From the NCBI GenBank assembly GCA_016865935.1, contig VGOB01000030.1, positions 1 to 34,298 on the forward strand: DNA of 34,298 nt, read 5' to 3'. The notes under the pieces were generated by a model. That model made no database searches, was not told the DNA's origin, and was given only the letters and a program-made list of their open reading frames with translations. The stretch is from Chloroflexota bacterium. GTDB taxonomy: Bacteria > Chloroflexota > Anaerolineae > UBA4142. A program made the position numbers and the translations under genes. This document shows, in pieces, positions 18,802-34,209 of this stretch; positions within the stretch are counted from its first letter, which is position 1; each line of letters starts with the position of its first letter.

Positions 18802-19023
18802 TTAGTCATAACAGAAGTGTTTGATGTCGTTGTGCCAGGTGACGATCAATATTACGCTTTCGGCGCGAATCGAGCAGCACTCGCTCATATACGTTTCATA
18901 CGTGTAAATGTCGTAGTACTCTTTGCCTTTGTCGTCTCGATGGTCGAAGTAGACCACGAACGACTTGCCTGGGTTTCGTTTGGCTGATCGCTTGGCGAGT
19001 GCAATCGCGTTGCGCTTTGTCAT
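18802..19023 (-). CDS. hypothetical protein (74 aa; the longer ORF extension upstream is probably not coding)
   Basis: Start taken at MTKRNAIALAKR. The upstream extension is R/S-rich low-complexity. Confidence 0.3.
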   Translation of the reverse strand: MTKRNAIALAKRSAKRNPGKSFVVYFDHRDDKGKEYYDIYTYETYMSECCSIRAESVILIVTWHNDIKHFCYD

Positions 19024-19060
19024 TGGGCGGTCAAAGTTGTTCACAGTTGTTGAGTTCCTT

Positions 19061-19570: not shown

Positions 19571-19608
19571 ACTGCTTTTCGCCGGATCGTATGTCCGGAG
19601 TGCCGCGA

Positions 19609-19752
19609 TCAGCCCTTCGGAAAGGGCTTCTTCCAGCTGAAGGTTTCATCGTCCGAATCGTGTACAAAGAGGTCTTCGCTGTACGTGCGCTCGATGCACC
19701 ACGGAATGTTGGTGCATTTGTAGTCGAACGTTGCGATCCAGGATATTTTCAT
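19609..19752 (-). CDS. small ORF (47 aa) with GGAGGTGA RBS, overlapping the sigma reading frame in the +1 frame
   Basis: MKISWIATFDYKCTNIPWCIERTYSEDLFVHDSDDETFSWKKPFPKG. Its stop lies inside the sigma-homologous frame. Confidence 0.3.
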   Translation of the reverse strand: MKISWIATFDYKCTNIPWCIERTYSEDLFVHDSDDETFSWKKPFPKG

Positions 19753-19758
19753 CGTTTC

Positions 19759-20112
19759 TCACCTCCTTTCGCCCGTGACGTAGAACTCAATCGCTCGTTT
19801 GATAACAGATGCGTGGCACGGCAACGGATCGCACCAACAAACCAACACGATTGTTTTTTCCGCTTTGGCGATTTCAACGAGACGCATCAACTCATCTTTC
19901 ACCGCACTATGCTCACGTTGACACTCGCCCCACAACCACTTGCGATACTTTTCGATCACTTGCGTTCGCGTTCCATCGCGTCCGACTCGAAAAGGATTTC
20001 CCAAAATGCTCCCCTTCCGAATTTGTTCGCATCCCGATTTCATCGGACGCCCCACATACACGATTGAACTCACCCAATCGCGCACCTGCTTGACGTTTCC
20101 TACTTTGATCAT
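19759..20112 (-). CDS. DUF4326 family protein
   Basis: VYVGRP...GNPF...IEKYRKWL...LVCWCDPLPCHASVI matches the DUF4326 pattern common in phages. Confidence 0.55.
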   Translation of the reverse strand: MIKVGNVKQVRDWVSSIVYVGRPMKSGCEQIRKGSILGNPFRVGRDGTRTQVIEKYRKWLWGECQREHSAVKDELMRLVEIAKAEKTIVLVCWCDPLPCHASVIKRAIEFYVTGERR

Positions 20113-20216
20113 TTCGCCAACCCCTTTCGCAAAAAAGTGTATTCGATCTCGAAACCGCTGAGATCGCTTGCGACACACCGCAAGGCGGGCTGAGCATCAA
20201 GCCCGATGCGTTTTTT

Positions 20217-20242
20217 GTGGCGGTTTGTTTACAAACCGCCAC
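20217..20242. repeat. 26-bp perfect palindrome GTGGCGGTTTGTTTACAAACCGCCAC (copy 1) followed by a CGTAGTT motif
   Basis: Second copy at 20624-20650 (GTGGCGGTTTGTGAAACAAACCGCCAC). Both are preceded by GCGTTTTTT. CGTAGTT recurs at ~20232, 20559, 20572 and 20692. Confidence 0.55.
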
Positions 20243-20623
20243 GTAGTTCGCATCGCCAAGCACGAGGCGTTCTGACCCGTAGGGCGGCGCGTTTTTTGCG
20301 CCGTTTTTTAAGGTTAGCCGTTTTTTGGCGGTGCGTTTTAATCGGCGCGGGGTTTGCGCCAAGAAGAAAACGCAAACCTTAAAAAATCAGTAACGCGCTT
20401 TCCGTGCTGGCTTGATGCCAGCCCGTGCACAGAACGATGACAAACCCTCTAACTTGGAAACCGCGCACGTAGCAAATCACGTCTGTGCGGCGTCTCGCCC
20501 GTTCCTTTGGTTTGCGTGCGCCCCTCAGCTCGTTTTTTGTGAGGGCAACATCGGCGCGTAGTTTTGCCGCGTAGTTTGCGGCAATTGCGCCGACAAGCGG
20601 GAATGAATCGGCGTGCGTTTTTT

Positions 20624-20650
20624 GTGGCGGTTTGTGAAACAAACCGCCAC
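20624..20650. repeat. palindrome copy 2 (see 20217-20242)
   Basis: Same arms with a different central trinucleotide. Confidence 0.55.
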
Positions 20651-21366
20651 GCAGTTCGCACGTCCTTAGCCCCGCTTGGTTGCCCGAACGTAGTTCGAGC
20701 AGGAGGCGCACGCAAGGGCGAGTGGGACGCCGCGCGCTTACGTGATTTGCGCTTTTGCGGTTTCTCAAGGTGTCGAACATCAAAAAGTGTAGATCGGACG
20801 CAACCTTGCGGTATGATCGCGAGCGTTAGAATCGCTTTAGTCACGTCCTTACATTTTCCGATGGCACGATGCGCTTTTCGCGCGTAGTGTGCGCGCATTT
20901 TGCATCGGCACATCGGAAAATGCTCGATCAGCGTGACGACGTAGAGACGAAAGGGGGGTATGGGGGGACAATCGAAATGTCCCCCCATCCGTTCGCGTTT
21001 TTCGCGAACGGTTCCCGCGTTCATCTGCAAACAAGCAAACGAGCGTCAGTCTCGTTTGCCTTTCGACTCGGCGACGCGACACGGAAAAAAATCGACATTC
21101 CTCGCCTGATCAGAAAGAACAACACACACACGCATTAAAATTCTTGCGCGGTCGCCGCTTTTCGGCGGGTACCGCGCAAGTCCATAAAGGGGGGGGCGTT
21201 ACGGGGGGGCGCACAGTGGTCGCCGTGCTTTTTGCGGCGCATTTTGCCGCGCACGTCGCGGCGATCCACTGCCCCCCCGTTAGAAGGGGGTGCGTGAATC
21301 GCTTTTCGATGAACGCAGGGGGAAAACTTTCCCCCTATATCTTAAAAAAGAAACAAAAGGAAAGCA

Positions 21367-21609
21367 TCATTCTTTTATTTCTTTTTTCTTCTCCTTCTCC
21401 TTCTCCTTCTCCTTCTCCTTCTCTTTCTTCTTCTTCCGGTAGACGTACATATAGCAAGCCGCATTGCGGATTGCTTTTTTGTGGTACCATATTTCAACGC
21501 GCGCTAACCGGTAGCCCTGTTTTTTCATTTCTGCGTGGGCTTTGAAGAAGTCAAAGGCGGCTTCGTTTCTGATTTTGACGACGCAGGGTAAGATGATTTC
21601 TTTTTTCAT
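21367..21609 (-). CDS. small protein with C-terminal (EK)n tract encoded by a hexanucleotide microsatellite
   Basis: MKKEIILPCVVKIRNEAAFDFFKAHAEMKKQGYRLARVEIWYHKK..., then KKKKEKEKEKEKEKEKKKEIKE. GAGGGAAG RBS. Confidence 0.4.
   Translation of the reverse strand: MKKEIILPCVVKIRNEAAFDFFKAHAEMKKQGYRLARVEIWYHKKAIRNAACYMYVYRKKKKEKEKEKEKEKEKKKEIKE
21385..21437. repeat. (CTCCTT)6 hexanucleotide microsatellite with flanking CTT repeats
   Basis: cttCTCCTTCTCCTTCTCCTTCTCCTTCTCCTTCTCCTTctctttcttcttctt. Confidence 0.7.
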
Positions 21610-21612
21610 TTC

Positions 21613-21942
21613 CTATCTTCCCTCTAACTGTTTCATTGTCTCTTTGAGTTTGGCATATTGAATTGCCAAATTCAAATCGGCGTTAGAGCAAATGAGCGCT
21701 CCGTCCTTGTTGATGTGCCATTGATCTTTGGCAATGGCGGACATTCTGTCGCGCGCTTCGTCCGCTGTGCGGAATGGCGTCACCCTGAGTTTGGTCGTAG
21801 TCCAGCCGCCCCACTCTTCGCCATCAGTCCAGGCAATAACATTGCCGCCTGTCTCGATAACGTAAGTCGTGCGGTCATTCGCGTCCAAAGTGCCAAGAAC
21901 GGGTATTTGTCGTCCGCCCCAGTTGACTGTTTGTTGACTCAT
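21613..21942 (-). CDS. hypothetical protein (109 aa)
   Basis: AGGGGAGGA RBS. Confidence 0.5.
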   Translation of the reverse strand: MSQQTVNWGGRQIPVLGTLDANDRTTYVIETGGNVIAWTDGEEWGGWTTTKLRVTPFRTADEARDRMSAIAKDQWHINKDGALICSNADLNLAIQYAKLKETMKQLEGR

Positions 21943-22280
21943 TATCCTCCCCTTTGCTCGTAGAATCGTCGCTTTTCTTCCGCTTCCTCGTTGAACGGAT
22001 CTTCTTCCACGAGATCACTTGGATCAGGAATGGATAACTCGAACCCCTCTGCCTCTGCGTCTCTGATCGCTTTCTTGCAAATCTCGATCAGTAGTTTGAA
22101 AGCGGCTCGCATCTCGGCAATTTGCTTGTCGTCCAACATTCCTTGCAATGTCGGATTGACCATTGGTTCAAACGTGGTCTTTCGATTCCTGATTACTGCG
22201 CTGATGTTGCACAGCTGGATCACGTCTCGCACGTTCGGATCACTCAGCAGTCCTACGCTGAATGGCGTTTTTGTAGGCAT
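21942..22280 (-). CDS. hypothetical acidic protein (112 aa)
   Basis: ORF with start/stop overlap to its neighbour. Confidence 0.45.
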   Translation of the reverse strand: MPTKTPFSVGLLSDPNVRDVIQLCNISAVIRNRKTTFEPMVNPTLQGMLDDKQIAEMRAAFKLLIEICKKAIRDAEAEGFELSIPDPSDLVEEDPFNEEAEEKRRFYEQRGG

Positions 22281-22295
22281 TTAGTTGCCTCCTTT

Positions 22296-22691
22296 TTAGT
22301 TTGTCGTTGTCAAATAATTTGATGACTGTGGTTGCGTATGTCGTCGTGATCGTGATGGTCGCTTTTTTGCTCTTTCCTCGCGTTCTTTGACTACGCCAAG
22401 CCACTTGATCATCAAACGCAGTTTTTCGTCCTTTGCTTCATTTGACCATTCCTCTCCCCACCACCTTATGCGCGCGTTGATTGTGTCTTTGTACTGCTGA
22501 TCTAATCGCCGGTATATCTTGAGCAGTTCCCAGAATCCTTCTGAAATGCCCTCGTAGCGTCCATCGGGACACAGAGAAAAAGTAATTGGGGCCGGATTCC
22601 ATCGATCAAGCATCACGCAGAAATCAACGGCGTCCATTACTCCTTCATCGTCTTGGGGATTCAGTGCGAGATAGACCTGGTTTTTTCTCAT
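22296..22691 (-). CDS. hypothetical protein (start uncertain; 22790 is an alternative)
   Basis: Trp-rich protein (IRWWGEEW). Confidence 0.35.
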   Translation of the reverse strand: MRKNQVYLALNPQDDEGVMDAVDFCVMLDRWNPAPITFSLCPDGRYEGISEGFWELLKIYRRLDQQYKDTINARIRWWGEEWSNEAKDEKLRLMIKWLGVVKEREERAKKRPSRSRRHTQPQSSNYLTTTN

Positions 22692-22839
22692 CTGAATACC
22701 AATTCCAGTATCACCGGCACACCTAACGCGCAACCGATGATCGCGAAAATTCCGAACGGACCGTTTTTGATGCACGTCGGCACGAGCCAATAGATGCCCC
22801 AGGGGACGAGCCCTACCGATAGTAGCACAAGCCCTGGAA

Positions 22840-23298
22840 TTATGTCGTCCATAAGGACCTGAAGGACCTGATCGCGCGCTGGATTGCGATTATGACGCCC
22901 ACTGCTAACCAGGGCACGGTTAGCAGGGTCAATAGAAACGGCACCAGCGGTATTTGTTCCTCTTTCTGTTTCGGCACCACTTTTTCTTCCTCCACTTCTA
23001 CTTCCAGTTCGGATAGCGAAATAAGGATCGAATCAATCTCGTCGGCGCAAATCGCTAGTTCGCCTTTTTCCCCCAGGTTGATGACGTGCTCGATGGCGGT
23101 CGCGGCGGCTTCTTGCCAGGCAAGACTCAGATCGCGCACATCATCGCACCAGATTTTCAGTTCGCCGGCGGCCGTGATCGGTTTGCTTTCTTTGTATGGC
23201 GATACCTTCGCCGATACCCCAAATGTGAATTTCACCTGTCCTTGAAAGGTCGGATCGGGTTTGTTGTCGAATTTTTTGTCGAAAATGTTCGTGCTCAT
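22840..23298 (-). CDS. hypothetical protein with C-terminal TM helix
   Basis: AAGGAG RBS. C-terminus LVPFLLTLLTVPWLAVGVIIAI. Confidence 0.5.
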   Translation of the reverse strand: MSTNIFDKKFDNKPDPTFQGQVKFTFGVSAKVSPYKESKPITAAGELKIWCDDVRDLSLAWQEAAATAIEHVINLGEKGELAICADEIDSILISLSELEVEVEEEKVVPKQKEEQIPLVPFLLTLLTVPWLAVGVIIAIQRAIRSFRSLWTT

Positions 23299-23484
23299 TC
23301 TTTCTTTCTCCTTTTCGGATTTTGGATTTCTTTTATTCTTCGTCCTCGCCCCAGGATCGAACCGGCGAGGTCATTGCTCGATGTCTGATCCAGTTTCGGA
23401 TCGTGTCGTAGACGATGAAGATGCTGACTACACAACCGATCAGAGTGACCAGTACTTCGGGCAAATGGTCGAGCGCGTTGACAA

Positions 23485-23679
23485 TCATTCTGCTTTTTCC
23501 TCCTCCTCTTTTGGTTTTGGAACCGGTTTCAGCACCAGGGAAACAGTGTGGTAAAACGTGTACACGGTCCCGTCAATTTCGACCACACCCTGGATTGCCG
23601 CCGTGCCGAAAACAATCTTGTGTTGCCTGTGAAACGTGGGATGCACGATGATTTTTTCGTCCCTTACATCACCCTTCAT
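23485..23679 (-). CDS. hypothetical small protein
   Basis: 64-aa ORF. Confidence 0.3.
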   Translation of the reverse strand: MKGDVRDEKIIVHPTFHRQHKIVFGTAAIQGVVEIDGTVYTFYHTVSLVLKPVPKPKEEEEKAE

Positions 23680-23894
23680 TCGCTTACCTCGCTTTTGCAG
23701 TGGAGTTCAATGTATTCGACAATCGCCCCGCATAGTTGTTTGCTAGGCGATACGTCGCCCATTGGAAACTGGAATGGCGGATAGCCGCTTTTTTCGAGAC
23801 ACCAAAAAGACGGTCGACCTGGGAGGGTCGCTGTGTATCGTCGTGCTACCCATCCGCGCGTGATTTGGATTTCGTTGTTCGGGAGATGTTCCAT
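23676..23894 (-). CDS. hypothetical small protein
   Basis: 72-aa ORF. Confidence 0.3.
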   Translation of the reverse strand: MEHLPNNEIQITRGWVARRYTATLPGRPSFWCLEKSGYPPFQFPMGDVSPSKQLCGAIVEYIELHCKSEVSE

Positions 23895-24110
23895 TTACCC
23901 TTCTTTTTTCCTCGTGGTCGGTAGTATTTGCAGTGGTGCATCGCGCCGGATTTTGTCCAAACGCAGGGGTAGCGCGTTTTTTTGATGTAACTTGATTTGT
24001 GTCCGCAAATTTGCATTCCGCTGACTGAGACTGACGTATATGGCGCGATCGGCGAGGGAATGAATGTTTGCTCGGGGTAGCGTCCTGCTAAATGGATGCA
24101 GTTGTTTGTG

Positions 24111-24449
24111 TTATTTGATGTCATTCGGGATCAATTCTTTCTCGATGGCAATGTACTTGCTGCGGAGATTGCTCATCGCGTCAAGAGTGCTGACGATTGC
24201 AACATCAAACCACCACCGGCGCAAGAACGTCCAACGGGCTGGAATGAGTTCGAGTACGTCGAATCGCCATTTGGGAAATTGGTACTCGCTTTCATAGCAG
24301 AGTGGGCAGGGGCGAAAAATTTTTTTCCGCACTTCGGTTAGCTCGATAGAAAAATAGTTGGGTGTGACCAACCGACACCAGGGGCGGATTTTGTGATACA
24401 ACCGTCCCTGGTATCTAACCAGGACGAATTTATCGTTTTGCGGTTTCAT
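24111..24449 (-). CDS. hypothetical protein (Cys pair CPLC)
   Basis: ORF starting at the internal Met MKPQNDKF. Confidence 0.35.
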   Translation of the reverse strand: MKPQNDKFVLVRYQGRLYHKIRPWCRLVTPNYFSIELTEVRKKIFRPCPLCYESEYQFPKWRFDVLELIPARWTFLRRWWFDVAIVSTLDAMSNLRSKYIAIEKELIPNDIK

Positions 24450-24738
24450 CGGGTTTTTCCTTTCTGCCCAAGAAGAGAATGAGATAGCACAGGGCATAGA
24501 GCATTGCTGCGCTATCTGCGATTTGAAACGTCATTTCGACCGGAAAGGTAGGCGCACTGCCTTGACTGACCTGGGTCAGTTCGTCGTCCACGTCTCGCGG
24601 CTCGACCGGCGGGATTGCTTTTACCTTGGCAAAGATCGGACCGTAAGGCGTGGGGATTGGTGTAAATTCGATCATAATCCCCGCGCGCAAAAGTTCGGCG
24701 AGGGCATCGGAATGGGTTTTGATCATTGGCATGTCCAC
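24430..24738 (-). CDS. hypothetical protein with C-terminal TM
   Basis: 102-aa ORF. Confidence 0.4.
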   Translation of the reverse strand: MDMPMIKTHSDALAELLRAGIMIEFTPIPTPYGPIFAKVKAIPPVEPRDVDDELTQVSQGSAPTFPVEMTFQIADSAAMLYALCYLILFLGRKEKPDETAKR

Positions 24739-25559
24739 GCTCCATTTTCATCGTCGGTATGCGCGCGATTGCGTTTCATTTCCTTGTGTTGTTTCGGGGC
24801 GAACGGATTGGACGGATTACCGGCGCGGATATGTTGGACAAAAAAACCTGGTCCTAGTGCTTTGACCTTTTCCGGATTTTTTAGATGGGCGGCGCTGTTG
24901 TGATCGTTGTAGTTGTACCATCCCCGGAGATATTCTTCATTGACGTGCGGCATTTGGGCGAGTTGAATCGCGACATACGCGTCAATGCCTAATTCCATCA
25001 TCATCATTTGGGCGTTGCGTGAAACGTCATCGGGCAATGTGGAAAAATCGGGTTGCGCTGATGATGATGGTTCCTGACGGTTCTTATGACGGTTCAATGA
25101 TGGATCAGGATCGGGGGCAACCGATTGCCCCCTATGATTTACGCGATTTTGCCCCCCCTTGACGCTGGATTGCCCCCCCCCTGCATTTTTTTGCCCCCCT
25201 CGCGCGTTTTTTTGCAGGGGGGCAAACTTTGCACCCTGGGGGGCAAACTTTGCCCCTTTCGGTTTTAGGTCGATTTGATCGGGGTAGGTCCTTAGAAGTT
25301 TGACGTTGATCTGAAATGCGTTTGTGCCTCGGGGCCCGCCGCCAGGGACGGTGATAACTTCTTTGGATTCTTCTACCTTGCGGAGGAGATACCTGGCATT
25401 GCGTTCGCATTGGCGCGCGTAGCGGGTCAATCGGGCGATTGACGGATAAGCGCCGGTCCCGTCGTCGTGCGCGTGATCGGCAATGGCGAGTTCGATCAAC
25501 AGGACTGAACCGCTGTTTTTGGATCGTCGCCAAACCAGGGTCATCATTTCGATGCTCAT
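24723..25559 (-). CDS. replication initiator-like protein with N-terminal HTH_36 (PF13730-type) domain and internal Gly/Gln/Lys repeats
   Basis: SVLLIELAIADHAHDDGTGAYPSIARLTRYARQCERNARYLLRKVEESKEVI matches the HTH_36 pattern (v.l.lad.a...g.cfPS...LA......s.rtv.r.l..Le..g.I). The central part is encoded by an iteron cluster. Confidence 0.5.
   Translation of the reverse strand: MSIEMMTLVWRRSKNSGSVLLIELAIADHAHDDGTGAYPSIARLTRYARQCERNARYLLRKVEESKEVITVPGGGPRGTNAFQINVKLLRTYPDQIDLKPKGAKFAPQGAKFAPLQKNARGGQKNAGGGQSSVKGGQNRVNHRGQSVAPDPDPSLNRHKNRQEPSSSAQPDFSTLPDDVSRNAQMMMMELGIDAYVAIQLAQMPHVNEEYLRGWYNYNDHNSAAHLKNPEKVKALGPGFFVQHIRAGNPSNPFAPKQHKEMKRNRAHTDDENGAWTCQ
25145..25258. repeat. iteron cluster inside the initiator gene: TTTGCCCCCC x3 and inverted GGGGGGCAAACTTTGC x2
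   Basis: ttttGCCCCCCCttgacgctggattGCCCCCCCCCctgcatttttttGCCCCCCtcgcgcgtttttttgcaGGGGGGCAAACTTTGCaccctGGGGGGCAAACTTTGCccc. Confidence 0.6.
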
Positions 25560-25882
25560 TTTTTCTTCCTCATCTTGTCGGCAAGTTCCACGAGGATGAT
25601 TTCCGTCATTTCGGTGATTGTTGCGGGATCAGCATCGTCGAGATCGATGCCGACTTTTTTCAAACGCTGGCGTAACATTCGGTCAATGGTGTCCGCGCTG
25701 ACGATTCCTATTAACCGGCGCTGGTTGACTACCATTCTATTTCCTTGCCCCTGTTCACATTGCGCGACGAGGCGGTAGTTGTGTCCATCGTTGCAAATTG
25801 GATGATCGCCGGTGTCGCCGGCTTCCCAAAGGATTGCGACGTTATGACGCGCGTCGCGTTTTCCGCGGAATCCGTGTGGCAT
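25556..25882 (-). CDS. hypothetical protein
   Basis: 108-aa ORF. Confidence 0.4.
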   Translation of the reverse strand: MPHGFRGKRDARHNVAILWEAGDTGDHPICNDGHNYRLVAQCEQGQGNRMVVNQRRLIGIVSADTIDRMLRQRLKKVGIDLDDADPATITEMTEIILVELADKMRKKK

Positions 25883-26219
25883 AGTTGCTCCTTAGGTTGA
25901 AAAGTTGCGGCTGGGAGTACGCCGACCATTTGAAGACCACGCATTGACCATCCTCGCGCACGGGCTCGGATTGCGTGAAATCGTCCTTGGCGTCGAATGC
26001 CTTGAGAAAGAATTTTTCTTCTCCGGCAATGACGCCCCAAGGGTGCGCGAGTTCTAGGATGAATTTGCTGTCGCGTTCGGAAAAGTAGAATGTGATTTCA
26101 AGATCGCCATCCTTGCGCCGATAGCATTTGAGGGGGTTGCCCGGCTTCCAGGGATTGGCGATCGCGTACTCGCGCATTTGCTTGGTAAGTGCGGGAATGT
26201 CGCGCGATCTAGTCGTCAT
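25842..26219 (-). CDS. hypothetical protein
   Basis: 125-aa ORF. Confidence 0.4.
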   Translation of the reverse strand: MTTRSRDIPALTKQMREYAIANPWKPGNPLKCYRRKDGDLEITFYFSERDSKFILELAHPWGVIAGEEKFFLKAFDAKDDFTQSEPVREDGQCVVFKWSAYSQPQLFNLRSNYATRIPRKTRRAS

Positions 26220-26691
26220 CGGCTTTTTCCTTTCTGCCGCGTTGCTCGGCGCGGCGTTGCCGCTTGCGCCAAAGTTTGGCGCATTCGGCGCGCTGTTTTT
26301 TATTCGTCCCGCAATAGACCTGGTTCACGGTCATCACGGCTGGGCGATGGTGACCTCGACAATTGCGGGGACGAACGTATAGATAGACCTTGTCCGGAAT
26401 TTGATAACGGGAATAGATGATGACGCGCTTGAGGTGTTGCGGGGAATGAAACTGGGTCGTGGTCTCAAGTTCGTCTAGTCGCTTGATCAACCTGGTCGTC
26501 ATTGGGAATGGATTGCGCTTCCGTAAAAGTTTTTTGATGTAACTGCGGGATACTCCAAACTCGTGCGCGAGTCCTTTCAATGACCAACGGGATTTGGTTT
26601 TTTCCCGAAACTGCCGCAATCGGTCAGTTGGGGTGCAAGTGGCTAGAAGGGCGTGTACGGACTTGCCCTCTTTTTTTGACCTGCGGATCAT
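26209..26691 (-). CDS. HTH DNA-binding protein (phage regulator-like)
   Basis: WSLKGLAHEFGVSRSYIKKLL is a helix-turn-helix motif. Confidence 0.45.
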   Translation of the reverse strand: MIRRSKKEGKSVHALLATCTPTDRLRQFREKTKSRWSLKGLAHEFGVSRSYIKKLLRKRNPFPMTTRLIKRLDELETTTQFHSPQHLKRVIIYSRYQIPDKVYLYVRPRNCRGHHRPAVMTVNQVYCGTNKKQRAECAKLWRKRQRRAEQRGRKEKADDD

Positions 26692-26985
26692 TTTGCCCCT
26701 TTTACGCGCCTCTCAGGCGTTATTCCCCTAGTTCCTCCCCTAGTTTTTTTTGCGGTTTTCGCGGTCGGTCGGTCGCGTAAAATCGGGGCTCGCTTGCTTG
26801 GGGCAGGGGTGATGTCGGGATACTTTGCGATGGAAAAGATGGGCGCGGATGTTCGGCTTGGGAAAGCTGGGCGCATTGTGAAAAAAGATTTTTCGGCTTC
26901 CACGGTGATATACCAGTTGAAAGTGGGTGAGTGAAAAATTGAGATCCGCGCGGGGTTGTCTTTTCGATTTCGCCGCGCGTCGAAA

Positions 26986-27014
26986 TTGACACAGAACGTA
27001 TGTTCGGATACAAT
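26986..27014 (+). promoter_or_regulatory. consensus sigma70 promoter (TTGACA, 17-bp spacer, TACAAT) giving a near-leaderless transcript
   Basis: TTGACAcagaacgtatgttcggaTACAAT, with the GTG start 7 nt downstream. Confidence 0.5.
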
Positions 27015-27020
27015 CACGGC

Positions 27021-27377
27021 GTGTCCGATTTGCAACTGGCTGCGTTGATCGTCGTCGCCGGAGTGGCGCTTGCGCTTGCGCTCTGGCTCCGACGCCGGAC
27101 GCGGCGCACACAATCCAAACGCCTGACCGTCCAAGTGATCCCGCCGGCGCCCGCGCCTTCCGAACGGCGCTGGTTGTGGGATTCGCTGACTGCGCGCGAA
27201 ATGCAGGTCGCGCATCTGGTCGTGCAAGGCAAGCGCAACGCGGAAATCGCAGAGGAATTGACCATTAGCGTCCATACCGTCGAATCGCACCTCAAACACA
27301 TCTACGCCAAACTCGGCGTGCATTCGCGCGGTGAATTGACGCGCGTCCTGCGCGATCTACTTGACGCCCTGGCTTGA
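27021..27377 (+). CDS. membrane-anchored LuxR/GerE-family transcriptional regulator
   Basis: N-terminal TM LAALIVVAGVALALALWL, then LTAREMQVAHLVVQGKRNAEIAEELTISVHTVESHLKHIYAKLGV (LuxR-type HTH). Confidence 0.6.
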   Translation: MSDLQLAALIVVAGVALALALWLRRRTRRTQSKRLTVQVIPPAPAPSERRWLWDSLTAREMQVAHLVVQGKRNAEIAEELTISVHTVESHLKHIYAKLGVHSRGELTRVLRDLLDALA

Positions 27378-27629: not shown

Positions 27630-27762
27630 TGCGTTGTTTCCCCTTTTGTGGTAAAGTGTCGGTGGAGAGCGGGACGCTTCGCGGGCTAACCCCGCTCCCC
27701 ACCGTTGTTTCGTGCGCGGCATCCTTTTGCCGCGCATTTTTTGTTGGTAACGGAAATCCGTG

Positions 27763-27815
27763 ATACGAAAATCACGGAAAAATCACTACTTTCCGTGATA
27801 GCACAAACGTTCGCT
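27763..27815. promoter_or_regulatory. operator-like TCCGTGAT / ATCACGGA repeats in the regulator-integrase intergenic region
   Basis: aaaTCCGTGATacgaaaATCACGGAaaaatcactacttTCCGTGATagc. The same 8-mer recurs six times in 29302-29490. Confidence 0.5.
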
Positions 27816-27848
27816 TTGTGCTATGCTGGGACTCACAAGGAGTCAGGA

Positions 27849-28766
27849 ATGGAACTTGCCCGCGCGATACAAGCGTTTCTCAACGACGCGGTTGCCCGCG
27901 ACCTCAGCCCGAAAACGAATCAACGGTATCAGTCCGATTTGGCGGATTTGACCCGTTTTCTTGAGCCGCATTCCATCACTTTGCTTGAGCAAGTGACGGC
28001 CGATCTGTTGCGCCTCTACATGACCGATCTCCAAACGCGGAGCAATCAGAGCCGCCCGGATGAAAAACTCTCCCCGTTCACGATCGAGGGGCGGTATCGC
28101 TCGATCAAAACCTTCTTCCGCTGGTGTGAGTGGCAAGAGTACCTGCCCGCCAACCCCATGCGCCGCGTTCGCCGCAACAGACTGCCGGTCCACATCGTGC
28201 CGCGTCTGTCCGAGATGCAAGTTAGGACACTGCTCAATGAAGTCGAGCAAACGATGATGCCGCAACGCAATCTGGCGTTGATCCTGCTGATGGTGGATAG
28301 TGGGCTGCGGCGCGGTGAAGTGCTCGGTCTGAAGATGGCGGACGTCTTCTTGGCGGAACGGCGGGTCCGAGTCTTTGGCAAAGGGCGGAAGGATCGGGAT
28401 GTTCCACTCGGCGATGCTTCCGCTCGTGCACTTGAAGAATGGCTTGCCCTGCGTCCGGTCTGCCTTTGGAATCAGGTATTCCTTAACGATGAGGGGACAC
28501 CCTTTCAGGCGGCCGGAGTGCAGTCATTGTTTGCGCGGTTGCAAGCCCGCGTGGGGGTGCCGCGACTGTATCCCCACTTGCTACGCCATACCTTTGCGGA
28601 GATGTATCTCAAGCAGGTGCGGGATGTGAAGAGTCTGCAACAAATCTTGGGGCATTCCAAAGCCAGCACGACGCTCGACCTCTACGTGGAGCACGATTTC
28701 GACGTTCTGTTGCGGATGCACCAGATCGGCTCGCCGGTGGATGCAATAAAAAAAGCGCACCTATGA
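27849..28766 (+). CDS. int: tyrosine site-specific integrase (XerC/XerD-like phage integrase family)
   Basis: N-terminal SAM-like domain (LSPKTNQRYQSDLADLTRF, YRSIKTFFRW) and catalytic domain (RRGEVLGLKMADV, HLLRHTFA, ILGHSKASTTLDLYVEHD) covering the R..H..R..Y motifs. GGAG RBS. Confidence 0.85.
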   Translation: MELARAIQAFLNDAVARDLSPKTNQRYQSDLADLTRFLEPHSITLLEQVTADLLRLYMTDLQTRSNQSRPDEKLSPFTIEGRYRSIKTFFRWCEWQEYLPANPMRRVRRNRLPVHIVPRLSEMQVRTLLNEVEQTMMPQRNLALILLMVDSGLRRGEVLGLKMADVFLAERRVRVFGKGRKDRDVPLGDASARALEEWLALRPVCLWNQVFLNDEGTPFQAAGVQSLFARLQARVGVPRLYPHLLRHTFAEMYLKQVRDVKSLQQILGHSKASTTLDLYVEHDFDVLLRMHQIGSPVDAIKKAHL

Positions 28767-28782
28767 TTAGGTGCGCTTTGGA
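28749..28782 (+). terminator. rho-independent terminator after int
   Basis: AAAAAAAGCGCACCTatgattAGGTGCGCTTTGG. Confidence 0.5.
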
Positions 28783-28903
28783 TATCCCCAGTTTGCGTGT
28801 GGAAGAATCTATGAACTCGCGTTGCTCTAGGAGAAGCCCTCTTCTCCTGATTCAATAGTGAACGCCTTTGTCTTGGACAGTTTCAGTTTCTCAAATACAA
28901 AGA

Positions 28904-29023
28904 GTTGTGCGATAATGAGAGCGTTCTAGAAGGATAGAGCATCTCCTAGAATGGGGGAATTTCGCAAACACATGGAATTGTGGTATAATGAGGGTGTTCT
29001 AGGAGGATAGGGCATCTCCTAAA
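28904..29023 (+). repeat. two 48-bp direct repeats, each with an extended -10-like box and a GGAGG-sequestering hairpin
   Basis: ttgtgcGATAATgagagcgTTCTAGAAGGATAGAGCATCTCCTAGAa and ttgtggTATAATgagggtgTTCTAGGAGGATAGGGCATCTCCTAAAt, immediately upstream of the tRNA-Gly fragment. Confidence 0.5.
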
Positions 29024-29038
29024 TCAATTGAATGCGTG

Positions 29039-29085
29039 TCTCCTTGCCAAGGAGAAGGTCGCGGGTTCAAATCCCGTCTTCCGCT
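29039..29085 (+). tRNA. partial tRNA-Gly(GCC), 3' half only (anticodon arm to discriminator; no 5' half, no CCA): att-core duplicate
   Basis: TCTCC-TTGCCAA-GGAGA is the anticodon arm, with U33, anticodon GCC and A37. AGGTC is the variable loop. GCGGG-TTCAAAT-CCCGT is the T-arm. CTTCCGC-T is the acceptor 3' strand plus U73. This is near-identical to the 3' half of Firmicutes tRNA-Gly-GCC. The upstream 25 nt cannot form a D-arm or acceptor stem. Confidence 0.6.
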
Positions 29086-29301
29086 CTTCGCCGAAAGGCG
29101 AATGCACAAACTAACTCTATGTAGGTCACCGAAACTGGCTCAGGTAATGAGCTACCGAAAATGGCTCGCTGTGAGTTGGTAAAGTGCGCGACCACCGACA
29201 ACAAAGCACGGTGGTAATTTGTCGAATGGGATCGCGTTCATACTCCTGCCAGGGAAGCGGACGCGATCCTATTCTTATTTAACCACATTCAGGTTCAAAA
29301 A

Positions 29302-29490
29302 GCAATCACGGAAACTAGGTATTTTGACGTGATCTTCGTATCACGGATTTCCGTGACACGGAAAAATTAGAGAGGCATTCGCCTCGCGCAACTGAAAAGT
29401 AATCACGGAAACCAGGTATTTTTCCGTGATATTCGTATGACGGATTTCCGTGATATGGCAAAATCCAGAGACATTCACCTTGTGCAATTC
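29302..29490. repeat. two ~95-bp tandem direct repeats (~80% identical), each carrying three TCCGTGAT-type motifs
   Basis: aATCACGGAaac.aggtatttt...gtgat.ttcgtat.acggatTTCCGTGA... occurs twice. Same motif as 27763-27815. Confidence 0.6.
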
Positions 29491-29545: not shown

Positions 29546-29782
29546 TTAGTTGGACGACAAATGACGCGTCCTTTTTTTGTCTGCCTTCACGTAGGTGATC
29601 TGCACTTGGCGGCGCAATCCAAGAACCTTCAAAATAGCGGGACCTGGATCGCGCTTGCCGTGCAAAACATCGCCAATATAAGCCCCTGTGACGCCAATTT
29701 CCTTTGCAAAGGCGCTCTGCGATCCCGCACGGTCTACCATCTTTTGTAGCAACATAACCACTTCATCGCGAGTCATCGCCAA
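29546..29782 (-). CDS. XRE/Cro-C1-type HTH regulator
   Basis: SQSAFAKEIGVTGAYIGDVLHGKRDP is a helix-turn-helix. Confidence 0.5.
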   Translation of the reverse strand: MAMTRDEVVMLLQKMVDRAGSQSAFAKEIGVTGAYIGDVLHGKRDPGPAILKVLGLRRQVQITYVKADKKRTRHLSSN

Positions 29783-30093
29783 GCATTGTAAGCACAGAAG
29801 GTTGATTTGTCAAGTACGATCTTTCGAGTGCTGAATCGTCGCTGTGTAGCGGCGACTCAACGTGCAATCAGGAGACTGCTGAAGTGTTTGAATGCGTTTG
29901 TTCTGACATGTACGTGACTCGGCAACTGCATTACGATTTCCTGCGACAAGGTAAGAAACTGTCGTACACGTTTTGGCGTGTATCGGCAGTTTTTTGTTGG
30001 ACATGCTCGACTGAAAACTGACGCGTGAGTTGGAAATATATTTTCCAACGGGCGGGTACTCTCAAGATAGAACCCGATCTTGGGAGGTACCCG

Positions 30094-30297
30094 ATGGCGC
30101 GATTGTTTGCAGGCGAAAAGGATTGCAAGTCGGACAATATTTTGCGCGTGCTGCAATCTCACGACTTTGGACTACGCGAGAGTGAATTGGCAGATTTTTT
30201 GAAATGGGATCGGCGGACGGTCAACAACTATCTGCGTGATTTGCAAGCGCAAGAACAGGTTCACAAAGAGGGACGACTGTGGTTTGCCGAAGAATAG
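30094..30297 (+). CDS. small winged-HTH protein, paralogous to the N-terminal HTH of the WYL-Cas3 fusion
   Basis: GGGAGG RBS. ILRVLQSHDFGLRESELADFLKWDRRTVNNYLRDLQAQEQVHKEGRLW aligns with VFLTLRRYPNGLTEADLEQDTGLNRRTLNNYLRALETEGKIYKDGLTW. Confidence 0.5.
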   Translation: MARLFAGEKDCKSDNILRVLQSHDFGLRESELADFLKWDRRTVNNYLRDLQAQEQVHKEGRLWFAEE

Positions 30298-30362
30298 CGC
30301 GTGGAAAAACTCATTGCACTAATTTTCCAACTGCAGAATAGAATAAGAATAGAGGAATCACG

Positions 30363-33300
30363 ATGCCCAAAATAGATCAAGCCACCTACGAAGATCGCAA
30401 GATGCGCGTGTTTTTGACGTTGCGCCGTTATCCGAACGGGTTGACTGAAGCCGACCTGGAACAAGACACTGGCTTGAATCGTCGCACGCTCAACAACTAT
30501 TTGCGCGCGTTAGAGACGGAAGGCAAGATTTACAAGGACGGCTTGACCTGGGCAGCCTTACCCTTCGATGAACTGCGCCTACGCCAATTTGAACTCTCGC
30601 CCGAAGAAGCGATGACGTTGTATCTGGCGACGCGCTTGCTCGCCAAGCAGCACGACAAGCGGAACGAACCTGCCGAAACTGCGCTGATGAAACTCGCAGC
30701 GGCGTTGAAGACGAACAAGATCGCAGGGGATGAAATCCATCAAGCCGCGCAAGAACTGGCGCAACGTCCGCAACAAGGCGAGTACGATCTGGTTTTTCGC
30801 GCGGTGATGCAAGCGTACATCTATCGCCGCATGCTCCGCATCACGTACGAGCCGCTGAATCGGAAAGCATTCGAGACGGATTTTTCGCCGTACCTCATCG
30901 AGCCGTCGGCGATTGGATTCACGACGTACGCGATCGGTCACAGCAGTATTGTCAACGCGACGCGAACGTACAAACTGGAACGCATCAAAGCGGCGGCGCT
31001 GACGCGGCAAGAGTACGTCATCCCGCGCGAGTTTCGCGGCTTGGATGTGCTGAAAAGCGCGTGGTCGGTGATCTACGGCGAGAACTTGCTCACGGTTGTC
31101 TTACGTTTCAGCCCGAACGTTCGCAAGCGCGTCGAGGAAACGCGCTGGCATTTTTCCGAAGCGAAGCGCGACGACCCCGCCAAGCCAGGTTATTTGCTGT
31201 GGCAAGCGCAAGTCGCAGACACGACGGATATGCTGCCGTGGGTGCGCGGCTGGGGCGCGGATTGTGAGGTGGTGGAGCCGAGGGAGTTGCGGAACGCGCT
31301 TACGCGTGAGGCGCGGGAGTTGGCGGAGATGTATAAGGTGATGGAGGCGGGGAAAAATCAGATTCAATATTATGCCCATTCCAAAAAAGGAAAAGACAAA
31401 TCCGAATGGCAACCATTGATCGCACATTTGACGAACTCGGCAAATTTAGCCGAGAAGTTTGGCGCAGATGCAGGAATCTCCGAACTGGCGCGCACGGCGG
31501 CTTTGATACACGATCTTGGTAAATATTCCAAAGCATTTCAAGCGCGGTTGGATGGTTCGCCGCGCAAGGTAGATCATGCCACGGCGGGAGCGAGGGAAGC
31601 CACAAGTCTATTCAACCAAAATCAAAATCAAAGATGGCTTGCCACAATGCTGGCTTATTGTGTTGCAGGACATCACACGGGACTGCCAGATTTCGGCAGC
31701 GCGATTGATGTAGAAACCGATGCCACGTTGTCGACTCGGCTTGACCCAAACAAAAAGACACTGGAAGATTTCAGCGCGTACAAAACTGAATTAGACCTTG
31801 CCACATTGACTCTGCCTCCCAACTTGAAAATCCGTCCCGACAAAGAGCGCCCAGGATTTTCGCTCGCCTTTTTCACGCGGATGTTGTACTCCACATTGGT
31901 AGACGCGGACTTTCAAGAAACTGAAACCTACATGAACGACGGCGAAAAGCCGCGCGGTGAATATCCAAGCATTGAAGAATTGTGCCAGAAATTCAATACC
32001 CATTTACGGAAATTCGACAACCCCGAAGGCGACATCAACAGAAAGCGGACAGAGACCCTGAAAACTTGTATCGCGAAAGCCGATTCTGAACAAGGATTCT
32101 TCACGCTCACCGTTCCAACGGGCGGCGGCAAGACGCTGGCTTCGATGGCGTTTGCGTTGAATCACGCGGTCAAGCATGGACTGAAACGGATCATCTACGT
32201 CATTCCGTTTACTACCATCATCGAGCAAAACGCGGGTGTGTTTAAAGAATGTTTGGGCGAGCAAAATGTCCTTGAACATCATTCCAACTTCGATTGGAAT
32301 CCGATGCGGGAAGCTAGTCCAGAGTCCGCCGACAATGAGACAAACGATGTCTTGAGTAAACTAAAATTGGCTTCGGAGAATTGGGATATTCCGATTGTAG
32401 TCACGACCAACGTGCAATTCTTCGAGTCGTTGTTTGCCAACAAATCCTCGCGGTGCCGCAAACTGCACAACCTTGCCAAAAGCGTCATCATTTTTGACGA
32501 AGCGCAAATGTTGCCGCGTGAATATCTAGATCCTTGTATGTTAGCAGTGAAAGAGTTGGTTCAGAACTACGGCGCGAGCACGGTCTTTTGTACGGCGACA
32601 CAACCCGCGTTGGACAAGCGTCTGCCTGGCGTGAAATTCATAGACCTGGTTCCCGATTCGCAAGCGTTGTTCGATTTCTACAAACGAGTGCAGATCAAGA
32701 ATCTTGGCAAGGTCCCAGACGCTGAGTTGATTGAAAAGATGAATGCTCATCCGCAGGTACTGTGCATTGTCAACACGCGCCGACATGCCAAGGGGCTATT
32801 TGACGGTCTTACGGGTGAAGGTAGTTTCCATCTTTCCACGCTGATGTGCCCCGCGCATCGCAAAGAAAAATTACTGGAGATTCGGAAACGACTCAAAACA
32901 GCGCAAGCTTGCCGCGTGATTTCTACCCAGGTGATGGAAGCGGGCATTGATGTTGATTTTCCTGTTGGCTTTCGCGCTCTCGCTGGATTGGACTCTATCG
33001 TCCAGGCGGCAGGACGTGTCAACCGAAACAAGAATAATCCGATGGGAGATGTGTTCGTCTTCGCGCCTGAAACACCGTTCATCAAAAAAACACCCGCGTT
33101 CATCAAGCAAGGCGCGAGCGTGGCGGAGAGCATCCTGCGGGATTACGCTGACAACCCTGATTCCATTCAGGCAATCAACGCATATTTCTCAATGCTCTAC
33201 AATCTTCAAGATAGCGGAGCATTCGACGCGAAAAAGATTCTTTCGTTTTTCGACAAGCAGACAGGCGAATTGGATTTCGATTTCAAAACAGCGGCAGAGA

Positions 33301-33602
33301 ATTTCAGGTTGATTGAAAACAATCAGGTCGCCGTTGTCATTCCTTATAAGGACGAGGCGAGAGAAATCCTTGAACAGGCGCGTTATCATCCCTACCCATT
33401 CAAGTTCGCGAGACAGTTGCAAACATACACCGTCAACATTTATCAAAACGAATTTGAAAAATTACAAAGCAAAGGAGTGATTGAAACATGTAACGAAACC
33501 TATCAAGTCCTTACTGTGGCTGGCATGAAAGAGTTTTACAATGAGAACACGGGGCTCGTCCTTCCTGCCGATGTCGGCGGTGAGGCGGTGTTCTTCGACT
33601 AG
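30363..33602 (+). CDS. cas3: Cas3 (HD nuclease + SF2 helicase) translationally fused to an N-terminal HTH-WYL-WCTD regulator module (type I-C locus)
   Basis: Residues ~1-320 hold a winged HTH, a WYL domain (YLIEPSAIGFTTYAIGHSSIVNATRTYKLERIKAAAL) and a WCTD-like region, with no stop codon before MEAGKNQIQYYAHS. After that come the HD motif (HDLGKYS), helicase motif I (TVPTGGGKTLASM) and motif II (IIFDEAQML), and a Cas3 C-terminal domain. Confidence 0.8.
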   Translation: MPKIDQATYEDRKMRVFLTLRRYPNGLTEADLEQDTGLNRRTLNNYLRALETEGKIYKDGLTWAALPFDELRLRQFELSPEEAMTLYLATRLLAKQHDKRNEPAETALMKLAAALKTNKIAGDEIHQAAQELAQRPQQGEYDLVFRAVMQAYIYRRMLRITYEPLNRKAFETDFSPYLIEPSAIGFTTYAIGHSSIVNATRTYKLERIKAAALTRQEYVIPREFRGLDVLKSAWSVIYGENLLTVVLRFSPNVRKRVEETRWHFSEAKRDDPAKPGYLLWQAQVADTTDMLPWVRGWGADCEVVEPRELRNALTREARELAEMYKVMEAGKNQIQYYAHSKKGKDKSEWQPLIAHLTNSANLAEKFGADAGISELARTAALIHDLGKYSKAFQARLDGSPRKVDHATAGAREATSLFNQNQNQRWLATMLAYCVAGHHTGLPDFGSAIDVETDATLSTRLDPNKKTLEDFSAYKTELDLATLTLPPNLKIRPDKERPGFSLAFFTRMLYSTLVDADFQETETYMNDGEKPRGEYPSIEELCQKFNTHLRKFDNPEGDINRKRTETLKTCIAKADSEQGFFTLTVPTGGGKTLASMAFALNHAVKHGLKRIIYVIPFTTIIEQNAGVFKECLGEQNVLEHHSNFDWNPMREASPESADNETNDVLSKLKLASENWDIPIVVTTNVQFFESLFANKSSRCRKLHNLAKSVIIFDEAQMLPREYLDPCMLAVKELVQNYGASTVFCTATQPALDKRLPGVKFIDLVPDSQALFDFYKRVQIKNLGKVPDAELIEKMNAHPQVLCIVNTRRHAKGLFDGLTGEGSFHLSTLMCPAHRKEKLLEIRKRLKTAQACRVISTQVMEAGIDVDFPVGFRALAGLDSIVQAAGRVNRNKNNPMGDVFVFAPETPFIKKTPAFIKQGASVAESILRDYADNPDSIQAINAYFSMLYNLQDSGAFDAKKILSFFDKQTGELDFDFKTAAENFRLIENNQVAVVIPYKDEAREILEQARYHPYPFKFARQLQTYTVNIYQNEFEKLQSKGVIETCNETYQVLTVAGMKEFYNENTGLVLPADVGGEAVFFD

Positions 33603-33619
33603 AAAGGAGGTTCACCCTA

Positions 33620-34209
33620 TGGGCTACGGAATCAAAATCCGAGTGCGTGGCGAGTATGCCCTGTTTACCCGCCCTGAAATGAAAGTGGAGCGTGTGAGTT
33701 ACGACATCATCACGCCTTCGGCGGCACGTGGAATCATCGAAGCGGTGTACTGGAAGCCAGCCATCCGCTGGGTGATAGATAAAATCCACGTGTTGAACGG
33801 AATCGAGTTCACTAACATTCGGCGCAATGAGGTAAGCGAGAAGGCGTCCGAAAGTGAAGCACGGCGGCGGATGAACGGCGCAACTGATCCATTTTATTTG
33901 TCCGCAACAGACGCCCGCCAACAACGCGCCGCGCTCGTGCTGAAAAACGTGGATTACATCATCGAAGCGCACTTCAAATTGACCGACAAGGCAGGCGCGG
34001 AGGACACAGTTGAAAAGCACTACAACATTATCCTGCGCCGCTTGCGCAAGGGACAGCATTTCCACGCGCCTTGTTTGGGAACGCGCGAGTTTGGCGCAAA
34101 GGTGGAATTGATCGAAGATGATGCGCCAATGCCGCCAAGCCCGCTTGGAAATCTGGAGTTGGGTTGGATGTTAGACATTATTAAAAATAGGGATAAAATG
34201 TATGCATGA
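33620..34209 (+). CDS. cas5c: Cas5c (Cas5d, type I-C pre-crRNA endoribonuclease subunit)
   Basis: MGYGIKIRVRGEYALFTRPEMKVERVSYDIITPSAARGIIEAVYWKPAI is the characteristic Cas5d N-terminus. AGGAGG RBS. Confidence 0.8.

Follow-up and report, generated by a model that had tools for sequence, protein, structure and literature searches.

A DriD/PafBC-type WYL regulator fused to type I-C Cas3, with putative operator-promoters, in Chloroflexota

INTRODUCTION

Fusion of a WYL domain to the HD nuclease and superfamily 2 (SF2) helicase of Cas3 was noted in some type I CRISPR-Cas systems by Makarova et al. in 2014 (PMC4012209), and the PADLOC profile for Cas3c, PDLC01766 (1009 positions), spans such proteins. 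Here we analyse one of them, a 1079-residue fusion encoded at positions 30363-33602 of a 34,298-nt contig of a Chloroflexota bacterium (VGOB01000030.1, assembly GCA_016865935.1); the whole of this 34-kb stretch is called the window below. Residues 23-1076 of the fusion match positions 21-1007 of the profile, and its N-terminal 326 residues alone match the first 318 positions (E 1e-76), so that the novelty implied in a preliminary description of this DNA does not hold for the architecture. On WYL-Cas3 fusions the searched literature yielded only the 2014 paper and citations of it; we found no functional study there, nor any mention of a complete regulator (with winged helix-turn-helix, wHTH, and WCX domains), of an operator-promoter, of a small wHTH partner or of shuffling across subtypes; the CRISPR reviews in it mention WYL only as an accessory.

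Several kinds of described WYL proteins bear on the N-terminal part of the fusion. DriD of Caulobacter crescentus and PafBC of actinobacteria are activators that sense single-stranded DNA (ssDNA). DriD binds the site CGxC-N7-GxCG as a dimer, and its promoters lack a -35 element, in whose place the site lies at a constant distance from the -10 box (PMC10853764, PMC13004042), while its helical bundle touches RNA polymerase (PMC13004042). BrxR, CapW and Sll7009 are defence-associated WYL regulators that act as repressors (PMC9122601, PMC11662680), and CapW senses ssDNA (PMC11662680). In Thermotoga elfii PIF1 the WYL domain is an accessory ssDNA-binding module (bioRxiv 10.1101/163188; PMC9122601).

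RESULTS

A complete regulator precedes Cas3 in one reading frame

The fusion is a single open reading frame (ORF) with no internal stop codons, and its parts are arranged as follows.

30363-33602, plus strand: fusion ORF, 1079 aa, in the order wHTH, three-helix bundle (3HB), WYL, WCX, linker, Cas3 (I-C)
30363-30572, plus strand: winged HTH, residues 1-70 (AlphaFold2, AF2, models and alignment with the DriD wHTH)
30600-30824, plus strand: helical bundle, residues 80-154 (AF2 models and alignment with DriD and PafBC)
30828-31013, plus strand: WYL domain, residues 156-217 (Pfam PF13280)
31089-31331, plus strand: WCX domain, residues 243-323 (Pfam PF25583)
31332-31370, plus strand: flexible linker, residues 324-336 (~13 residues), variable in length and sequence
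31371-33599, plus strand: I-C Cas3, with HD at ~337-525, SF2 helicase at ~560-905 and a C-terminal domain

The preliminary description had proposed that a full HTH-WYL-WCTD (here WCX) regulator and an intact Cas3 share one reading frame in a type I-C locus, and the domain hits along this ORF bear it out. In Pfam, WYL (PF13280) matches residues 144-211 with 27.4 bits against a cutoff of 21.8, and WCX (PF25583) matches residues 243-321 with 57.1 bits against 23.9 (E 2e-15); the PADLOC WYL model matches the protein as well (E 4e-25). No Pfam HTH is found in the fusion protein itself at E<=0.01, while HTH_24 and HTH_11 matches occur in its homologs, and the domain is recognised here by profile alignment with DriD, which runs from residue 4-5, and by the AF2 model, with helices at 9-22, 29-36 and 40-52 and a beta-wing at 56-65. 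The recognition helix is 40-RRTLNNYLR-48. The AF2 model of the module has a predicted local distance difference test (pLDDT) score of 89 and resolves the wHTH (9-65), the bundle (80-154, in which four helices are seen), the WYL barrel (156-217) and WCX (243-323), where R256, E259, W262, R295 and W297 are invariant or nearly so among homologs. A full-length AF2 model, read for per-residue confidence and secondary structure only, has both halves well folded; the last WCX helix stops at 323 and residues 327-332 of the linker are disordered (pLDDT <50), the linker comprising 5-15 variable residues across homologs. The protein is a genuine single polypeptide in which a complete DriD/PafBC-type sensor-regulator is tethered to the N-terminus of a motif-intact I-C Cas3.

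The kinship of the module is the same by profile and by fold. Over its whole length (residues 4-318) its profile matches DriD with E 6e-21, and PafBC is matched with E 4e-23, whereas the match to BrxR (7qfz) is marginal (E 4e-3). Foldseek ranks DriD in complex with ssDNA and operator first (E 2e-15, TM-score 0.58), ahead of DriD-RNA polymerase complexes, PafBC, and then BrxR, CapW and WYL1, with E ~1e-7 and a TM-score of ~0.3 for BrxR/CapW. We rejected BrxR/CapW as the closest family, since both scores are far weaker than those of DriD, and the fusion differs from a PIF1-type accessory WYL in having an N-terminal wHTH and bundle as well as WYL and WCX. Judged by these comparisons, the N-terminal module is a full DriD/PafBC-type regulator. 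Several residues at the core of the DriD ligand pocket, though not the more peripheral ones (contacts from PMC10853764), have conserved equivalents in the fusion (DriD/fusion: Y168/Y162, Y192/Y189, R204/R201, W206/Y203 and R207/K204), and R207 of the fusion is conserved too; among 115 fused homologs, Y162 and Y189 are each tyrosine in 104, K204 is kept in 111 and R207 in all 115.

Two conserved putative operator-promoters flank a small wHTH gene

The region directly upstream of the fusion contains a small gene and two elements that we call P1 and P2.

30030-30048, palindrome without strand: putative P1 operator TTGGAAATATATTTTCCAA (TTGGAA-N7-TTCCAA), perfect, upstream of the small gene
30057-30062, plus strand: P1 -10-like box TACTCT, 8 nt after the palindrome, no -35 consensus
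30094-30297, plus strand: small stand-alone wHTH protein, 67 aa, Shine-Dalgarno (SD) sequence GGGAGG at 30083-30088
30320-30333, plus strand: P2 element TAATTTTCCAACTG, right half-site of the palindrome with flanks
30339-30344, plus strand: P2 -10-like box TAGAAT, SD AGAGGA at 30351-30356

The P1 palindrome is the sole match in the window, where 0.09 would be expected by chance. For comparison we used a survey of loci carrying the best relatives from a one-genome-per-species scan (L-numbered below), in which loci whose module has the recognition helix RRTxNNYL form class A (n=46). The palindrome, with up to two mismatches, lies in the upstream zone of 40 of these 46, and 42 when L018 and L037, which carry it slightly further upstream, are included; its density is 2.2 per kb in the upstream zone versus 0.06 per kb elsewhere. 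The gap is strictly 7 nt (38 hits, versus 0 for gaps of 4-6 and 8-12). Eight nucleotides after the palindrome stands a -10 consensus TAtnCT, whose A2 and T6 are invariant in 42/42, and no -35 consensus is seen.

The pattern TTTTCCAAC-N7-TAnnnT, ending in a -10-like box, occurs twice in the window, at P1 and P2, against 0.01 expected. The P2 core TAATTTTCCAAC is present in 29/29 intergenic regions of loci with the small gene, and the 14-mer is exact in the window and in 24 of the 28 non-redundant fetched small-gene loci (27 with three duplicates), the remaining four deviating at one base; the consensus reads TAATTTTCCAACTG-N5-TAnAAT. This element usually precedes the start of the regulator or fusion by 39-42 nt, and it follows the stop codon of the small gene at ~20-25 nt in every case, including loci with the regulator 0.3-1 kb off.

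In loci that lack the small gene, the full palindrome stands immediately upstream of the regulator or fusion gene. Among them are four I-E fusion loci (L024, L026, L031, L032), in which, the small gene being absent, the fused HTH is the only one encoded in cis. Two unfused loci (L033, L035) have an extra copy of the palindrome before the Cascade genes. In modules of another class, whose recognition helix reads NRSTIxRYL, the conserved element is a different one, TGTTGCGGAAT(..GCAACA), beside TGnTATAAT; element and HTH class thus covary. The preliminary description had proposed a direct coupling of ligand sensing to interference or primed adaptation; what the comparative data favour is that the fused HTH would still serve a conserved operator-promoter, that is, transcriptional autoregulation.

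A consensus promoter scan of the region found only the promoter of a divergent Cro-like gene (see below) and missed P1 and P2, because both lack a -35 element. Just upstream of the P1 palindrome, at 29953-30023, AAACTG[T/C/A]CG occurs three times, with the orientation alternating; these AAACTG[ATC]CG inverted repeats first looked like operators and were set aside when cross-locus k-mer analysis pointed to TTGGAA/TTCCAA.

The small wHTH is a frequent but optional partner

The gene at 30094-30297 had been described as an HTH paralog, and it is a true one: over 50 aa it is 36% identical to residues 16-65 of the fusion (E 8e-11), in the same register. In 29 non-redundant loci, with any type of Cas3, a small gene of this kind precedes the regulator or fusion by 60-110 nt; as it accompanies 29 of ~45 class-A modules, fused or unfused, we regard it as a frequent but optional partner. 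Its homologs are 65-70 aa long, have no sensor or dimerisation domains, keep RRTxNNYLR in 27/29 copies and evolve with a ratio of nonsynonymous to synonymous substitution rates (dN/dS) of 0.21-0.28. They form 53 database clusters, none of them specifically named, and appear to be confined to Chloroflexota, few sources naming the organism. 

The suggestion that the fusion arose after duplication of this gene does not hold, since the small gene is found beside fused and unfused regulators alike and is a separate partner, not a donor. The other suggestion made for it, that of a regulator pair with an anti-regulator, is compatible with its having the same recognition helix and what would be a conserved site of its own, and we infer that it may act as a competitor or co-regulator at the half-site element.

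Some loci vary this arrangement. Inserts of 0.3-1 kb separate the small gene and the 14-nt element from the fusion gene in L013 (7003-8001), L041 (8241-8501) and L042 (619-1280), and L042 has two tandem small wHTH genes. In L009, directly upstream of the small gene, a gene at 7399-7779 begins with MILLNYSHPLTPAQL and is similar to one of the CARF-associated families aligned in Supplementary File 7 of Makarova 2014.

The Cas3 half belongs to a type I-C operon

The C-terminal half exceeds the NCBIfam cutoffs of both cas3_HD (TIGR01596, 99.9 bits versus 43.45) and cas3_core (TIGR01587, 119 bits versus 102.45), and its Pfam domains are Cas3_HD (342-490), DEAD (581-748; DEAD/ResIII 562-748) and Cas3-like_C_2 (798-890). 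The HD residues H339, H383, D384, H405, H437 and H438 and the helicase motifs GGGKT (587-591), DEAQ (712-715) and QxxGRxxR (881-888) are invariant among homologs; HDLGKYS, GGGKT and DEAQ, all present in the fusion, are so in 59 of them. Among solved structures, the Cas3 chains 8zns_A (E 6e-119) and 8g9u_P (E 1.5e-114) match this half from residues 2-5 of their own sequences onward, and the best PADLOC models for the fusion protein are Cas3c. By its motifs and profiles this half is a canonical, motif-intact type I-C Cas3.

Directly after it follows one more cas gene, beyond which, before cas8c, the window stops.

33620-34209, plus strand: cas5c of type I-C (TIGR01876, 150 bits), true start ATG at 33620, SD AAAGGAGG at 33604-33611

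No CRISPR array was found in the window, which ends at cas5c. The same fusion does occur in orthologous I-C loci, which have full operons with cas5c-cas8c-cas7-cas4-cas1-cas2 and an array downstream; these arrays have at least 39 and at least 50 repeats, with the 33-nt repeat GTCGCTCCCTTCATTGGGAGCGTGGATTGAAAC, ending in ATTGAAAC. In one such operon (L003, 17688-17984) a GIY-YIG gene of 98 aa stands between cas4 and cas1.

The fusion is widespread, and its regulator has apparently been exchanged between Cas3 lineages

Six contigs carry the identical fusion protein, and its architecture is kept in 119 further clusters (NCBI, JGI, ENA and Logan assemblies), 56-79% identical and ~1060-1100 aa long; sources label these homologs as Chloroflexi/Anaerolineales metagenome-assembled genomes (MAGs) and name the protein simply 'Cas3'. 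A stop codon or frameshift between the modules is not borne by independent sequences, and an assembly or sequencing artefact is refuted by the more than 100 clusters and ~40 genome loci with the same junction. Both halves are under purifying selection (dN/dS 0.07-0.23 for the regulator module, 0.06-0.07 for Cas3).

An exhaustive search with residues 1-326 returned 3359 relatives, and 194 of these reach E<=1e-30. The nearest ones, 48-62% identical, are ~1210-1270 aa long and end in a I-E-type Cas3 only ~22% identical to that of the window, and stand-alone regulators of ~320-350 aa begin at ~41% identity. The one-genome-per-species scan found a relative of the module in at least 596 genomes, the best 80 of which are almost all Chloroflexota. 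Across the survey the module has four settings: fused to an orthologous I-C Cas3; fused to a second I-C Cas3 lineage (L007, followed by cas5c and cas8c); fused to a I-E Cas3 (L013, followed by cse1, cas7e and cas5e); and unfused, with its stop codon overlapping the start of a ~800-aa helicase-first Cas3 with C-terminal HD (L008, L009, L012, L033). Similarity of the module does not track the Cas3 lineage, as three fused loci compared with the window make plain.

L007 (second I-C lineage): module 80% identical, Cas3 38% identical
L001 (orthologous I-C): module 40% identical, Cas3 72% identical
L013 (I-E): module 63% identical, Cas3 28% identical

Even the unfused modules of L008 and L009 are 78% identical to that of the window. 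All fusions share one junction, in which the end of the last WCX helix ('..LAELYxV') is followed by 5-15 variable residues and the canonical Cas3 N-terminus, while unfused regulators end in a ~20-residue tail. Because near-identical unfused modules overlap the start of cas3 and the junction is common to all fusions, the simplest reading is that a promoter-proximal regulator gene beside cas3 lost its stop codon and that the cassette was then exchanged among Chloroflexota type I loci. Origin of the fusion from the duplicated small gene is ruled out by the presence of that gene beside both kinds of regulator.

An internal ATG (Met327 of MEAGKNQIQYYAHS) had been taken for the classic start of Cas3, and this part of the preliminary description did not stand. 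In 115 homologs residue 327 is M in 41, V in 41, I in 10, G in 7, A in 4 and L in 4, and what is conserved at the Cas3 N-terminus is only 'YY[AG]HS', the start of the HD domain. There is no in-frame ATG, GTG or TTG in the linker of 12 of the 39 fused loci, and an ATG with an SD-like sequence is found there in only six. Given the variable position and the startless linkers, we rejected a conserved internal start. The window itself has GTG-ATG at codons 326-327 with GGAG upstream, a combination shared by a few relatives, the GGAG being part of conserved Ala-Glu codons of the WCX helix.

Two relatives, P0145 (894 aa) and P0155 (676 aa), have the same wHTH-WYL-WCX module and then an HD domain with no recognisable helicase; in them the module may be joined to a free-standing HD nuclease (Cas3'') or to HD proteins of another kind, and P0155 could be a truncated gene call.

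Surroundings of the cas cassette

A region with a recombinase gene and repeats lies upstream of the cas genes, and its features are listed here together with a divergent regulator gene and an ORF run.

27705-28766, within the region 27705-29464: tyrosine recombinase gene (Phage_integrase, E 5e-32)
27738-27802 and 29302-29366: 65-nt inverted repeats associated with the recombinase gene, made of CACGGAAA/TTTCCGTG sub-motifs
29395-29464: tandem duplicate of the right inverted-repeat arm
28887-29021: tandem 62-nt direct repeat, copies 82% identical
29040-29095: GGTCGCGGGTTCAAATCCCGTCTTCCGCTC, resembling the 3' half of a tRNA (T-arm and acceptor strand)
29546-29782, minus strand: divergent 78-aa Cro/CI-like HTH_3 gene
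29813-29785: promoter of the Cro/CI-like gene, TTGACA-17-TACAAT, the best sigma-70-like promoter of the region
17500-27300: ORF run, mostly on the minus strand

The recombinase cassette lies ~0.6 kb upstream of the cas regulatory region and could be invertible or mobile. The tRNA-like segment may be an att-site remnant of the adjoining integrase; neither ARAGORN nor Rfam reports a tRNA gene at 29040-29095, and no tRNA genes or Rfam families were found in the window. Each 62-nt copy of the direct repeat has a TGnTATAAT-like box (GTGCGATAAT / GTGGTATAAT) and then a hairpin CTAGrAGGATAGrGCATCTCCTA, so that the two copies may be promoters or transcripts of small RNAs. Apart from one HTH_31 the ORF run has no Pfam hits, and it may be an integrated mobile element beside the CRISPR locus.

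DISCUSSION

We consider it somewhat probable (about 0.55) that the fusion is bifunctional, its N-terminal half being an operator-binding, ligand-sensing (probably ssDNA-sensing) regulator of its own operon and its C-terminal half an ordinary I-C Cas3. Such a protein would have arisen when a regulator gene that opened the cas operon, with cas3 immediately after it, lost its stop codon, the cassette later being exchanged between different Chloroflexota type I loci. The regulator half would remain a transcription factor that, like DriD, probably forms dimers by way of WCX and the bundle, and the dimer would bind TTGGAA-N7-TTCCAA at the -35 position of a promoter with a good -10 and no -35. In this way it would govern the expression of its own gene and of the cas operon according to a nucleic-acid ligand, in all likelihood ssDNA, held in the WYL/WCX pocket. 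The small wHTH, with the same recognition helix, would bind the half-site before the fusion gene and modulate, probably damp, that promoter, and the Cas3 half would act with Cascade as an ordinary I-C Cas3. As to the sign of regulation, we lean modestly to activation over repression because of the kinship with DriD/PafBC and the promoters without a -35.

Several points weigh against this proposal. DNA binding, ligand, dimerisation and the sign of regulation are read from homology and comparative genomics, and -10-like hexamers, of which the putative boxes of P1 and P2 are examples, are easy to find. About half of the ssDNA-contact residues of DriD (S172, R178, R189, Y240, R288) are unconserved in the alignment, and the ligand could therefore differ from ssDNA. 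BrxR, CapW and Sll7009, the defence WYL regulators characterised to date, all act as repressors. In the sub-lineage of the window, with GTG-ATG and GGAG at the junction, some separate Cas3 may be made. Finally, Cas3 engaged by Cascade cannot also occupy its own promoter, and a regulatory role would therefore imply a partition of the protein pool.

With the same architecture and operator, the module might instead be a repressor of the BrxR/CapW/Sll7009 type, which occludes the promoter core and is released by ssDNA on infection or DNA damage; we find this doubtful, though it is the role that characterised defence-linked WYL regulators play, CapW indeed being released by ssDNA (PMC11662680; PMC9122601). 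The operator overlaps the -35/spacer region, which is also a classic position for a repressor, and negative autoregulation would limit a potentially toxic nuclease. On the other side, the module is nearer to the activators DriD/PafBC than to BrxR/CapW (profile E of the order of 1e-21 versus 4e-3, Foldseek 1e-15 versus 1e-7), it includes the bundle with which DriD contacts RNA polymerase (PMC13004042), and its promoters have no -35 at all, like the activator-dependent promoters of DriD. A different role, which seems to us unlikely, is that of an enzymatic accessory, in which an ssDNA-binding or dimerising WYL/WCX loads or gates the helicase-nuclease as in Thermotoga PIF1 (bioRxiv 10.1101/163188; PMC9122601), the HTH lends non-specific DNA affinity, and transcription is left to the small wHTH or host factors. 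Retention of the fusion in three Cas3 lineages suggests some benefit of covalent linkage, the short tether would, in the model, put the WYL pocket near the HD nuclease, and both the recognition helix and the DNA element of the small wHTH are the more invariant ones. Yet the whole regulator architecture, recognition helix included, is under purifying selection, the operator changes along with the module's HTH class and persists in fused loci without the small gene, and near-identical modules occur unfused. The accessory and regulatory roles are not mutually exclusive.

It is distinctly improbable that the fusion is genetic only, with regulator and Cas3 working as two proteins after internal initiation at the junction or proteolysis of the linker. 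The GTG-ATG and GGAG of the window, the predicted disorder of the linker and the existence of unfused, translationally coupled versions would fit such an arrangement; but Met327 is kept in a minority of homologs (41/115), linkers of 12/39 fused loci have no in-frame start codon and only 6/39 have ATG with an SD-like sequence, the GGAG is accounted for by the Ala-Glu codons of the WCX helix, and no stop codon is found in more than 100 independent sequences. That a lost stop or frameshift joined two genes artificially can be practically dismissed: the sequence of the window is a single MAG contig, but the identical protein recurs on 6 contigs, the architecture in 119 more clusters down to 56% identity and the junction in ~40 loci.

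If the bifunctional reading is carried further, Cas3 could be its own ssDNA-responsive activator. ssDNA from interference, phage replication or DNA damage would enter the WYL/WCX pocket, a tether of 13 residues away from the HD nuclease, and bring the dimeric wHTH onto the palindrome promoter, giving positive feedback on cas3 and Cascade (and adaptation); the small wHTH would be a decoy or anti-activator that sets the threshold, and the cassette a portable induction module swapped among I-C, I-E and I-G-like systems. Taken jointly, these steps are a speculation that we would not expect to hold in full.

Little is understood of what turns type I CRISPR-Cas systems on when a cell is infected. 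Here the effector itself carries a complete DriD-like sensor and DNA-binding module, and with a sharply defined putative operator-promoter and a small wHTH, competitor or partner, the same locus completes a circuit that lends itself to testing. Should the module sense ssDNA and regulate its own gene, the product of Cas3 activity or DNA damage would be tied directly to cas expression by a compact, portable induction cassette. That a single regulator cassette has moved between I-C, I-E and helicase-first Cas3 loci indicates that cas operons evolve with interchangeable regulatory 'heads'. As the architecture was catalogued earlier, the value of the case lies in mechanism and not in discovery of the fusion; what is new is the full DriD/PafBC-type identity, the operator-promoter, the wHTH partner and the shuffling of the cassette.

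Set beside known systems, the window protein is a member of the group of fusions noted in 2014 and covered by PDLC01766, for which the two sources offer no more than a list of domains or a profile. Its closest solved relatives, 8zns_A and 8g9u_P, resemble the whole Cas3 half with all catalytic motifs but begin at the HD domain, without the N-terminal extension. With PIF1 it has in common a WYL that would serve a nucleic-acid enzyme, but there the domain is single, C-terminal and without HTH or WCX. WYL1 (6oaw), an accessory of Cas13d and a distant fold match of the module, is a separate protein. WYL1 binds RNA. BrxR and CapW, with the wHTH-WYL-WCX order in defence islands, and Sll7009 of a I-D CRISPR system are likewise WYL regulators heading a defence operon, but they are stand-alone repressors with weaker similarity to the module. 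The nearest parallel is with DriD and PafBC. The module has the same wHTH-3HB-WYL-WCX order over its full length, and its putative operator is, like that of DriD, a palindrome with a 7-nt AT-rich gap, lying over a missing -35 at a fixed distance from the -10. In the recognition helix, R36 R37 T38 ... E40 R41 of DriD align with R40 R41 T42 ... N44 N45 of the fusion, so that N44 N45, which would read the bases, here replace E40 R41; the half-site reads GGAA where that of DriD has CGxC. The sequences are no more than ~18% identical, and unlike DriD and PafBC the module is covalently joined to a 750-aa nuclease-helicase and presumably controls a CRISPR operon instead of DNA-damage genes.

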